From the NCBI GenBank assembly GCA_039621445.1, contig CP154954.1:4454714-4518713 (forward strand): a DNA stretch of 64,000 nt, written 5' to 3'. Under the pieces are notes generated by a model, which ran no database searches, was not told where the DNA came from, and was given only the letters and a program-made list of their open reading frames with translations. Positions 18,201 through 21,200 of the stretch are shown here, piece by piece. The translations under genes and the position numbers were made by a program. This DNA comes from Euglena gracilis (lineage: Eukaryota). Position 1 is the first letter of the stretch. Every line of letters begins with the position of its first letter.

Positions 18201-21200
18201 TACAACTTCCGGGGAGACGCCGACAACGTTGACAGTCGAGCCTGACGGGGGAAAAATCCCAATAAATTCATATTTTGGTGACAGGTCATGATTTTGACAC
18301 TTTGGTGAAAAGAATGATCGTCAGCTGGAATGTTGCCTAAAATGGTCAAACTTAGACAAAAGGGGGGATTGTATTCATATTTTTGGTCGCAGAAACTTGA
18401 TTTTCCGATCCAAACAGAACCCCTGCTCATGGTCTGGAAATGTCCGCCCAAATATAAAAACGGGGGCTTTGCATTGGGGGGGGGGGGGGCTAGTCAAAGC
18501 CCTCTTGGCAAAATCAAATTGGGCTCGAAAGGCGCCGGAGGCCCAGAAAAATCCATTCTGGGAATTTTTGCACCACGACACGGTTGGAAACCGACCCAGT
18601 GTTCAGACTTCTTTCAGTGGCTCTGTTCATCCGTTTGTTGTTCCCGATGTTTCCGCTTTCCCGCCGCTGACCCCCGGGCTGCGTCCGGCGGCCCGGCCCA
18701 GGGAGGACCTCCTTCCGCAGCGCCTCGCTCTGCTGGAGCCGGGCCGTGAGGGTCGTGCACAGGCTTCGTTTTGACCCCCCCCCCTCGGGGAAAGGGGTCC
18801 TCCACCCCACCCACCCACCTGGCTGGCCCGGGACAGGGTCCCGGCCAGGGTTCGATATAAGGACAGGTGGGGGGGGGGTGATCTGGACCCCCCCCTGCGG
18901 GCCAGGGGGGGGGTGGGGGGGACCCCCCCCCACCTAAACAGTGGCGCGGTCCAGGTGACCGATTTTTGGCCCGGCGCAAAGCGCCGGGCCGAAAATTTTT
19001 GACCCCCCAAAACGACCAAAAGTGCCATTTTGGGCACTTTTTTTGGGCAAAAATGTGCAAAGAATGCAAAAAAAAATTTCGGCGCAAAGCGCCGGAAAGA
19101 AGCGGAGGAAAAAGTTGACCCTTTTTGGGGGGGGGGTCCCGGGTACCCCCCCAGGGTCGGTCCGGACCCCCCTGGCAGGTGGGGGGGGGGGGCGGACCCC
19201 CCCCTGCGGGCCAGGAGGGGGGGGGGGACACCCCCCCACCTAAACCATGTACGCCCTCCTTGTATCAAACCCTGGTCCCGGCCCCACCCACCCAACCACC
19301 CGAAAGGGAGGGTCTTCCGAGAAAACAGAAGCCTGGTCGTGAGCAGCTCCGCCTTGTCCTGCGCGATGACAATGCTGCGCACGATGTCCGCCGCGGGGCT
19401 CTGCTTGAGGACGGAGGGGAACTGGCGGCCGGGGCGGGCGTCGTAAAAAAAGACCCCGTAACAACAAAAACAAATTACTGTTGTGGTATTAAAAAAATGG
19501 GGGGGGCACATGAAATACCCCCCAAACATGCTTTGATTTGGCAACCAACTATTAACCCCTCTGGGGAAATGTAGACGAGAAAAAAACTTGAAAATTAGCC
19601 GTTTTGCGGCAGTTTTAGGAATGAAATTGACACATTTCTCCAAAAATGGTGCCCAGCAGCAGGACTTTTACTTCAAAAAAAATGGTAGAGTTTGCGCAAA
19701 ATGAGTGCCAAATTGTTTGGGGAACGAAAAGCGCTTTTCATCGTGCAAGTTTGATTTCTTGTTGGAAATATACAAACCATACCATACCATATACAAACCC
19801 CCTCTGAGGGTCTCCCGCCAAATATAAACCCAGGGGTTGTATATAGGGGTTACAGCACCCTCCAAAGCCAACATATCTGGGACAGTCCGAAGGTGGACAT
19901 GGCGGGTGTGGTGGTAGGGGACAGGTTACTTCCAAGGTCCGCCCCGGGGCGGCTGCTCTGCCATGTCTGGGTGGTCTGCAGGTTGCCGGTGACCGAGAGG
20001 TGGTACGCGCTGGACGGCGGCAGGGACCGGATGAGGGTATGGCAGTGCGGACGTTTGTTCTGTGACACTTCTGTCCGGAGACCAAATGTCCGGAGGCCAT
20101 GGCCCCCATCCAAGGGGAATGGGCGGACGGTTTTCTTTTAGGACTGGGGAGGGGTCTGGACCCACCCGCCCGCCACCTGGGGGCCACAGTGCCCCCCATC
20201 TGCGGGGGGCAGGGCCATACGGGAAAGCCTGGTGGGGGGGGTCGACCCCCCACCCAACACATTATTTTCACAGATTTTTGGAAACGAATTTCTCCCGGTG
20301 CCAAAGGCGCCGGGAAGTTTTTTTGGAGTCGAAAATTGGTGCTCCCCGAAATACGGGAAGAGGTGGGGTGGGTCGACTCCCCCCCCCCACCACCCTGGCT
20401 GTTTGCCCGATTGTGGTTTTGCCCGGGGGGGGGGAAGGGGGCGTCCGGGGGACACACTTTTGGGGGGTCAAAAGAATCTTGGGGTCAAAAGGAAGAAGGG
20501 AGGAAACACCCATCTCCGAGAGTGGAATACCCACTGGGTCCTGGGGGGATCCCAACCCCCCCCCCCCAAGGGGCAGCCAAACATGAGGGAAAAGTGGGAG
20601 GGTGTACACGCAGAAAATCGACCTGAAAAAATCAAAACAGAAATAATGATGTCACTCGGACGCACAAAAAATACAAGCAAACATGTGGCACGAAGCCCCC
20701 GGGCAAACACAATGTGTGGAGCCTGCCCAGAGGGTGCTGAGGACCGATGGATCCCTGGGGAGGAGGTCATTGGGCGGGGACAGGAGCGTGGAGGAGGTCA
20801 GCGGGGGGTTGGGGGGGGGTGGGCGGCGCGGTCGGGGCGCTGGCGGCGCCGCCCATCGGGGGGTTAGGCCACCGACATACAGGCGGCAGGCGGGGGACTG
20901 TGGATGAGGACGGGAAGGACGCCACACCACCCAAAAAAGGGGAAAATAGAAAAAAGAAAGAAAATAATAATAATAATAATAACAACAACAACAACAACAA
21001 CAACAACAACAACAACAACAACAACAACAACAATAATAATAATAATAATAATAATAATAACAATAACAATAACAATAATAAAAAGGGCCACCATTTTTCA
21101 GACCTCTGCGGGGACCCACCACCCACCCAGCCCATCGCGGGACACCTCAGGCCCCCCCCCCAAAAAACGGGCTGTCTGAGGGCATTTCCCAAGAAAAAAT

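Follow-up and report, generated by a model that had tools for sequence, protein, structure and literature searches.

A nonconventional intron of Euglena gracilis as a probable nested transposon insertion removed with one copy of an 8-bp target-site duplication

The origin of the nonconventional introns of euglenids, and the reason for the code which places CAG at position +4 and CTG at position -8 of these introns, are questions dating from the 1990s. The present analysis concerns one such intron, intron 5 (positions 18755-19338, minus strand) of a gene referred to here as the host gene, located in a 64,000-nucleotide (nt) stretch of the Euglena gracilis genome (assembly GCA_039621445.1, contig CP154954.1, positions 4,454,714 to 4,518,713). 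The whole of this stretch is called the window, and all coordinates given below refer to it. In a preliminary description, made from the letters of the window, the intron was regarded as a MITE (miniature inverted-repeat transposable element) of the hAT type, spliced out together with exactly one copy of its target-site duplication (TSD).

The published background of this proposal is considerable, and it is quoted here from the relevant parts of the papers concerned. That MITE-like elements gave rise to nonconventional introns was proposed by Milanowski et al. in 2014, at a time when, according to the part of that paper quoted, no euglenid transposon was known (PMC3935182). In E. agilis a strain-specific, newly gained gapC intron was reported to have eight-nucleotide direct repeats at its junctions, which were ascribed to break repair (Milanowski et al. 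2016, PMC4770533), and a review of 2024 mentions terminal inverted repeats (TIRs), “TSD-like” repeats and a pyrimidine/purine look at both intron ends (PMC11282704). Knock-in mutagenesis in E. gracilis has been reported to define the splicing code as 5'-N3CDG-/-CH'GN5-6 followed by R at the start of the exon, which sets the spacing at 3/5(-6) and requires both the purine and pairing; synthetic 50-bp inserts built as N3-CAG-pairing-CTG-N5, again followed by R, are spliced correctly in the same species (PMC12501133). In E. agilis nonconventional introns account for about 72% of all introns, 84.4% of introns are “slidable”, and a MITE-like source is mentioned (Nomura et al. PNAS 2025, PMC12501133). 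The general MITE origin, the TSD-like repeats and the 8-nt repeat at a new intron are already published, and the repeats of the new gapC intron are exactly what a TSD model predicts. A statement that 3 + 5 equals an 8-bp TSD, a link to hAT, or TSD-flanked members of intron families lying outside exons were not found in the openly searchable literature, supplements and subscription papers being outside that search, and the link between the code and an 8-bp TSD appears to be new to the open literature searched; the histogram of sliding distances in PMC12501133 may nevertheless hold such a signal.

Boundaries and composite anatomy of intron 5

The host gene was delimited with a transcript-derived protein. 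When the translated upstream exon was used as a query, the sole protein returned was eukprot:EG_transcript_694 of a Euglena transcriptome (1253 aa, hereafter P0001), and in our own spliced alignment its residues 1-851 were placed on the minus strand from 20934 to 17. The alignment comprises 33 exons separated by 32 introns, and residues 23-847 differ from the genome by 11 mismatches. The features that matter for intron 5 are as follows.

17 to 20934, minus strand: host gene; P0001 residues 1-851 of 1253 aa in 33 exons; no Pfam family match for P0001
19339 to 19423, minus strand: upstream exon; tblastn identity of 100% over residues 54-83 and spliced mapping, 5' edge taken from the 3+5 option of intron 4
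18705 to 18754, minus strand: downstream exon; first base G (a purine); spliced mapping
18755 to 19338, minus strand: nonconventional intron 5, 584 nt; ends placed by N3-CAG...CTG-N5, junction by P0001 at the protein level
19321 to 19335, minus strand: 5' inverted-repeat arm of the outer element, CAGGCTTCTGTTTTC; its partner in the centroid fold is the 3' arm
18760 to 18773, minus strand: 3' inverted-repeat arm of the outer element, ending in CAAAACGAAGCCTG; from sequence and centroid fold
19336 to 19343, minus strand: left 8-mer CTCACGAC, putative TSD copy 1, with 5 exon and 3 intron bases
18752 to 18759, minus strand: right 8-mer TGCACGAC, putative TSD copy 2, with 5 intron and 3 exon bases
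18846 to 19274, no strand assigned: nested family-B MITE, 429 bp, TIR CAGGGTTCGATA.../CAGGGTTTGATA... (11/12), from the scan for CAG..CTG pairs
18838 to 18845, no strand assigned: left TSD copy beside the nested MITE, GTCCCGGC, perfect 8 bp
19275 to 19282, no strand assigned: right TSD copy beside the nested MITE, GTCCCGGC, perfect 8 bp

On the minus strand the intron and its borders read ...GCTGCTCAC / GAC CAGGCTTCTGTTTTC ... CAAAACGAAGCCTG TGCAC / GACCCTCACG, where the slashes mark the junctions; the exon to the left of GAC reads, over a longer stretch, ...GCGGAGCTGCTCAC. Both flanking exons are 100% identical to P0001, which runs AELLTTLTARL across the join, and the removal of intron 5 at the predicted place, anticipated as an in-frame join AELL-T-TLTARL, is confirmed at the protein level. 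CAG stands at +4 to +6 and CTG at -8 to -6, as in the euglenid nonconventional motif, the purine G at 18754 opens the downstream exon, and none of the 8 protein-equivalent boundary pairs offers GT/GC-AG borders. The cut point slides over 7 nt because CACGAC(C) is common to both flanks, the 3+5 placement being one of those 8 options (slide +3). Intron 5 is a nonconventional intron in a nuclear gene of Euglena, namely the genomic counterpart of EG_transcript_694, and by itself it is an ordinary member of a known intron class.

What distinguishes the intron is its composite build. The arms of the outer element, CAGGCTTC(T)GTTTT and CAGGCTTCGTTTT, form 13 bp with one bulged T (8 bp, bulge, 5 bp) and have CAG and CTG tips, just as the preliminary description had it. 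The 8-mers outside these arms, which on the plus strand read GTCGTGCA (18752-18759) and GTCGTGAG (19336-19343), were called near-duplicates there, and they are indeed identical at 6/8 positions, a modest agreement when taken alone; the mismatches fall on positions 1-2, where the right copy is intronic. As P0001 reads L-L-T, not L-C-T, the cut lies beyond flank position 2. The nested 429-bp MITE, not mentioned in the preliminary description, lies wholly within the intron. On the minus strand it has the full code N3-CAG..CTG-N5 with R next, in this case G, from which it could be excisable on its own. The outer element without the nested insert and one TSD copy measures about 139 bp.

In the centroid fold of the 604-nt pre-mRNA segment, CAGGCUUC pairs with GAAGCCUG, so that the gaps between stem and junctions are 3 nt and 5 nt, and the nested MITE folds as a separate long stem (fold z = -5.6, 20 shuffles); in the minimum free energy structure the extreme ends are paired otherwise than in the centroid. 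By eye, similar G-rich stretches can be seen in the two halves of the outer element (18760-18845 and 19275-19335), namely GGGTGG(T)TGGGTGGGTGGGG and GAAGACCC..TTTC..GGG; their order is direct, not inverted.

Related elements and the 8-nt register

Elements with the same ends occur elsewhere in the window. A strict scan for CAG..CTG pairs with a TIR of at least 10/12, in which the 8-mer flanks were compared, gave 243 pairs, and in 4 of them the flanks agreed at 7/8 or better, against 0 when the flanks were displaced by 1-4 nt and a mean of 0.13 pairs (maximum 1) in 30 Markov-1 resamples. When perfect repeats beside CAG..CTG pairs were sorted by length, k=8 gave 3 cases, while the other lengths within 4-12 gave 0-1; repeat lengths 2 and 3 gave 16 and 6 perfect matches, which were taken as chance. 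The TIR motif CAGGCTTSTGYTT, with up to 2 mismatches, was found 21 times in the window as compared with 6.2 +/- 2.2 in shuffles (0/100 shuffles reach 21); the tips of family A, those of the intron 5 outer element and those of an element at 38393-39195 all fall under it. The elements with duplicated flanks are listed below, none with a strand assigned.

1119 to 1438: family-A MITE, copy 1, TIR CAGGCTTGTGCTTA, perfect TSD CCCCCAAC; within intron 31 of the host gene
36028 to 36325: family-A MITE, copy 2, perfect TSD GTGACCCG; 5' tip mutated to CAT
47028 to 47593: MITE, TIR CAGGGCAGAAC, perfect TSD GCTGGGGG; strict scan
55810 to 56102: MITE, TIR CAGGCTGT.TTT, flanks GTATAAAC/ATATAAAC at 7/8; strict scan
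44417 to 46703: long family-B element, 2287 bp, flanks 6/8; contains a 163-bp tandem repeat, in 2.8 copies, at 45064-45514
13522 to 13627: family-B MITE, 106 bp, forming intron 15 of the host gene; flanks GTTGCCCT/GCTGCCCT at 7/8; P0001 reads SVLREGNLPQ across the join

The two family-A copies align end to end with a column identity of 78%, and the different perfect 8-bp TSD of each is a signature of transposition. Altogether four 8-bp TSDs in the window are perfect and several are 7/8. A TIR combined with a TSD of fixed length, in several copies with different TSDs, is seen in both families, A and B, and in the 47028 and 55810 elements, whereas the outer element of intron 5 has a TIR and 6/8 flanks only. 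The “free MITEs” with CAG..CTG ends and perfect 8-bp TSDs that had been noted in the window are real transposons, those at 1119-1438 and 47028-47593 among them.

At least one intron, intron 15, is a member of such a family. Its 114 nt are composed of the 106-bp element and 8 nt, and in this element+8 register its arms match at 10/12 and its flanks, AGGGCAGC and AGGGCAAC, at 7/8. On the plus strand one of its tips reads CAA and not CAG, so that a G.U pair results in the RNA. The first 25 nt resemble the nested MITE of intron 5 and the 44417-46703 element (common CAGGGTTCGATA...CAGGTGG), and intron 15 belongs to family B, as does the TSD-flanked nested MITE. P0001 has REGN across the join, with N and not S, so the last three flank bases come from the downstream copy and the cut lies upstream of flank position 7. 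Taken together, the protein readings of introns 5 and 15 are consistent with a cut between positions 5 and 6, i.e. a 5/3 split as in the 3+5 rule. The long 44417-46703 element ends ...CCCTG CCACC followed by G and abuts an exon-like open reading frame (ORF) at 44328-44412 (minus strand); it is probably an intron of a second minus-strand gene. Of the many similar copies in different genes that define an introner family, family B has in this one window a bare intron (15), a copy nested in an intron and a probable intron of another gene (44417). Among further introns in the element+8 register, intron 18 has TGGCCACCC arms at 10/12 and flanks at 7/8, and intron 14 has CATCCCC arms at 9/12 and flanks at 6/8.

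The statistics of the host gene point to the same register. Its first three small exons and one 8-nt exon are doubtful, and with the 4 doubtful introns left out 28 of the 32 mapped introns were trusted. A structure N3-CNG...CNG-N5 with complementary motifs was found in 17/32 introns (13 CAG..CTG, 2 CCG..CGG and 2 CTG..CAG), and in 17/17 of these the first exon base is a purine. Over these 17 introns the 8-mer flanks are identical at 3.76/8 positions (0.471), as compared with 2.91/8 (0.364) for permuted pairs (p=0.004, 20000 permutations); the comparison of flanking 8-mers with controls, recommended in the preliminary description, shows in this gene the excess that was expected there. At other assumed lengths of 3-12 the identity is 0.25-0.34, length 5 excepted. 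With intron 15 added (18 introns), the flanks are identical at a rate of 0.493 within the 8-nt frame and of 0.292 beyond it (Fisher p=3.5e-5). The best 8-mer window at the junction, sought without use of the TIRs, reaches at least 6/8 in 11/28 introns, whereas among shifted-distance controls the share is 5.9% (Mann-Whitney p=2e-5). A peak of flank identity in the 8-nt register over 17-18 introns is supported by these observations.

Some of the introns that do not fit the strict code have other paired tips (CAT..ATG, ATG..CAT, TGG..CCA) or 3+6 spacing. Since a GT/GC-AG option exists in 0/32 mapped introns, nonconventional splicing appears to be the only kind used in the host gene. Intron 22 contains a 21-bp unit in about 11-14 repeats at 7631-7924; together with the MITE nested in intron 31, it suggests that the introns of this gene grow through secondary insertions and repeats.

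Several other features of the window were recorded. TIR elements with non-CAG tips and 8-bp flanks at 7/8 lie at 32230-32488 (TTGGTTGGCCACC.., TTGG..) and 59550-60143 (TGTGGAAA.., TGTGG..), and from these the 8-bp duplication may be independent of the CAG tip. The pair 8288-9042 (flanks 6/8) overlaps an exon and was set aside as probably due to chance, and the pairs 15495-15715, 39405-40494, 60830-61375 and 47918-51005 were rejected for poor flanks (0-4/8). Two exon-like ORFs picked by codon-usage score, 37740-37958 and 42249-42386 (both on the minus strand), had no protein match. A 163-aa ORF at 26351-26839 (plus strand) resembles by eye the end of a retroelement integrase core, Pfam giving only a sub-threshold zf-CXXC. 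About 25 tandem copies of TAGGGT (a rotation of TTAGGG) at 53927-54075 have the look of an interstitial telomere-like tract.

Proposed mechanism and rival explanations

The following course of events is proposed. A short TIR element with CAGGCTTC... tips would have entered an exon and duplicated 8 bp of its target; later a 429-bp MITE of another family, with CAGGGTTCGATA... tips, would have entered this outer element and produced its own 8-bp TSD, which is still perfect. In the pre-mRNA the inverted ends would pair with each other, and nonconventional splicing would make one cut upstream of the 5' CAG, at a distance of 3 nt, and another downstream of the 3' CTG, at a distance of 5 nt. As 3 + 5 = 8, such an excision would take the element together with exactly one TSD copy and restore the coding sequence which existed before the insertion. 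Both cuts would fall at the same place in the two TSD copies and the same dinucleotide would stand at both junctions, which would explain the pyrimidine/purine look reported for both ends.

The reading of intron 5 as nested transposon insertions, removed as element plus one 8-bp TSD copy by the 3+5 rule, is given a probability of about three in four, and within the window the transposon-plus-one-TSD reading is well supported and in accord with independent observations in the literature. The origin of the intron from a MITE, as suggested in the preliminary description, is favoured by the nested MITE, by the family membership of intron 15, by the element+8 length and by the 8-nt register. The outer element itself is a presumed insertion, and the 3+5 geometry may be causally tied to the TSD length. 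The statement that any such insertion would at once be a neutral intron went too far, as the published code also demands that the exon open with a purine and that the stretches behind CAG/CTG pair (PMC12501133). With a purine needed, harmlessness on arrival is plausible for targets with a purine at position 6 and not for any insertion.

A wider claim can be formulated, namely that the 3/5 spacing is an RNA-level device of exact excision matched to transposons with 8-bp TSDs, that every such intron began as an insertion harmless on arrival, that the junction look represents the same place in two copies, and that the splicing enzyme may recognise hairpin ends which the transposase recognises too, or may even derive from that transposase; we would give it an even chance. 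If the geometry of the code does equal the TSD of a resident class of transposons, intron gain in Euglena would become a concrete and datable process of transposition, the equal consensus at both junctions and the “slidable” repeats would be simply explained, and the search for the splicing machinery would be narrowed to factors which count off 3 and 5 nt starting at a TIR hairpin.

A number of results weigh against these readings. All the intron statistics come from one gene in one 64,000-nt window, and the junction of intron 5 is known from one transcript-derived protein with an exact cut that can be slid. No second copy of the outer element was found in the window (in a BLAST search with the whole intron only internal pieces recur), and a flank match of at least 6/8 occurs in 8/272 permuted left/right pairs of introns of the same gene (about 3%). 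No perfect 8/8 flank pair was found among the introns of the host gene, 11/28 trusted introns fall outside the strict N3-CNG..CNG-N5 pattern, and in the 17 code-fitting introns register 5 is raised as well (0.435). Flank identity is not significantly correlated with TIR quality (rho=0.38, p=0.13, n=17). When the TIR requirement was loosened to 8/10 (4104 pairs), flanks of at least 7/8 were lost in noise (5 against 3-8 at shifted registers), the perfect 8/8 count alone standing out (3 against 0-1). Finally, no transposase-family Pfam match was obtained among the 10 longest non-repetitive ORFs beyond 21 kb of the window, an absence which in one window says little.

The hAT superfamily has the terminal consensus YARNG, and its member Ac prefers targets of the form nTnnnnAn. 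The CAGGG tips of family B and of the 47028 element fit this consensus, and the CAGGC tips of family A, the outer element and the 55810 element fit it at 4/5 positions. Of eight TSDs compared by eye, few as these sites are, 4-5 have T at position 2, 3 have A at position 7 and none has a central TA. For Buster the preference nnnTAnnn has been reported, and hAT elements have been described with 8-bp TSDs and 5-27-bp TIRs, the hAT MITE Mar having CAG(G/A)GG tips (PMC3517528). The window elements, with 8-bp TSDs and arms of about 11-15 bp, lie within these limits of TSD and TIR length. Of the hAT label given in the preliminary description the 8-bp TSDs and short TIRs stand, and on the other side are the lack of a transposase among the ORFs named above, termini that agree only in part with YARNG, and the 8-bp TSD which Merlin also has. 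A cut-and-paste DNA transposon with 8-bp TSDs is the assignment made here, hAT-like being the best guess and unproven; that the elements are hAT-like has roughly even odds.

The same mechanism could operate with MITEs of another superfamily that makes 8-bp TSDs, such as Merlin, P-like or Zisupton-like elements or an undescribed group, and this is possible, with the odds somewhat against it. Two Merlin families with 8-bp TSDs have been reported in the draft genome of E. gracilis (PMC8101967), and no paper joining Euglena and hAT was found in the literature searched. The lack of a hAT transposase among the ORFs searched, the non-CAG tips (TTGG.., TGTGG..) of the two elements with 7/8 flanks, and the CAGGC tips of family A, the outer element and 55810-56102 also speak for another superfamily. 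Merlin itself shares the 8-9-bp TSD, but its TIRs are described as 24-462 bp long with a terminal 5'-GG (PMC8101967), whereas the tips here are CA(G)G.. and the arms 11-15 bp, and the CAGGG start of family B and of the 47028 element, like the TSD and TIR lengths described for hAT and the Mar tips, draws the comparison back to hAT.

Other explanations dispense with transposition or reverse its part. The splicing code may be older and transposons with 8-bp TSDs may have taken CAG/CTG tips later, since mimics of the code would be harmless in exons, or excised intron circles may re-integrate and seed “MITE” families; full-length circles are in fact reported for excised nonconventional introns (PMC11282704), and introns in the element+8 register also have TGG.., CAT.. 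and ATG.. tips, the tip being not strictly fixed. An RNA-mediated route alone, however, predicts no constant 8-bp duplication, copies within introns (1119-1438) keep perfect TSDs without a need for splicing of their own, and the window holds nothing by which the order of events could be told; we consider this order unlikely. Junction repeats could also be scars of double-strand-break repair or microhomology, with inverted ends serving only the splicing hairpin and the TSD-flanked MITEs unrelated to the origin of introns. Break repair is how the 8-nt repeats beside the newly gained gapC intron were explained (Milanowski et al. 2016, PMC4770533), flank identity is only partial in most introns of the host gene, and the outer element is single-copy within the window. 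Scars of this kind are nevertheless very unlikely, given that 25 nt of intron 15, terminal and subterminal, recur in the perfect-TSD nested MITE and in the 2.3-kb 44417 element, that the identity of the repeats is limited to the 8-nt frame adjoining the TIR, and that two family-A copies have different perfect 8-bp duplications. Mere coincidence, in which 3+5 would equal 8 by accident and the 6/8 flanks of intron 5 would match by chance, could appeal to the 3% of permuted pairs that do as well and to the favourable case which the preliminary description may have chosen. The effect is seen over 17-28 introns with three different controls, and intron 15 and the published 8-nt repeat at the newly gained intron (PMC4770533) reinforce it, so that an accident is highly improbable.

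Comparison with known systems

Compared with hAT MITEs, the elements of the window are distinguished by the lack of a cognate transposase among the ORFs searched, by TSDs in which neither nTnnnnAn nor nnnTAnnn is clearly preferred (8 sites, judged by eye) and by CAGGC tips, which are one off YARNG. They share with them, for example with Mar of Drosophila (CAG(G/A)GGTAGGC, PMC3517528), the 8-bp TSDs, the short TIRs (11-15 bp here) and the CAGG tips. The Merlin elements are likewise DNA transposons with 8-bp TSDs and come from the same organism, but they differ in TIRs of 24-462 bp with a terminal GG (PMC8101967), while the window elements begin with CA and their arms span 11-15 bp.

With the euglenid nonconventional introns described so far, the introns of the window have in common the lack of GT-AG borders, CAG at +4 to +6 and CTG at -8 to -6, the pairing behind these motifs, the purine at the exon start and the slidable direct repeats; the window adds to this class TSD-flanked family copies outside exons and a nested insertion. 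A likeness in other organisms is offered by introners and MITE introns of Micromonas, Aureococcus, Amoebophrya and Fritillaria (Huff 2016; Farhat 2021, PMC7789003; PMC11282704), which according to the parts of these papers quoted are also TIR elements that land in exons and are removed from RNA, with an insertion repeat that overlaps the boundary and a hairpin that joins the ends. In introners the repeats are 3-5 nt long, and removal is mostly a task of the (modified) spliceosome, which uses splice signals in the element or in its TSD. In maize, Ds insertions are said to be spliced from transcripts as well, imprecisely and by the spliceosome, in work attributed to Giroux in 1994. The Euglena elements differ from introners in an 8-nt repeat, in a rule of 3 and 5 nt measured from a hairpin and in a removal that is apparently non-spliceosomal.

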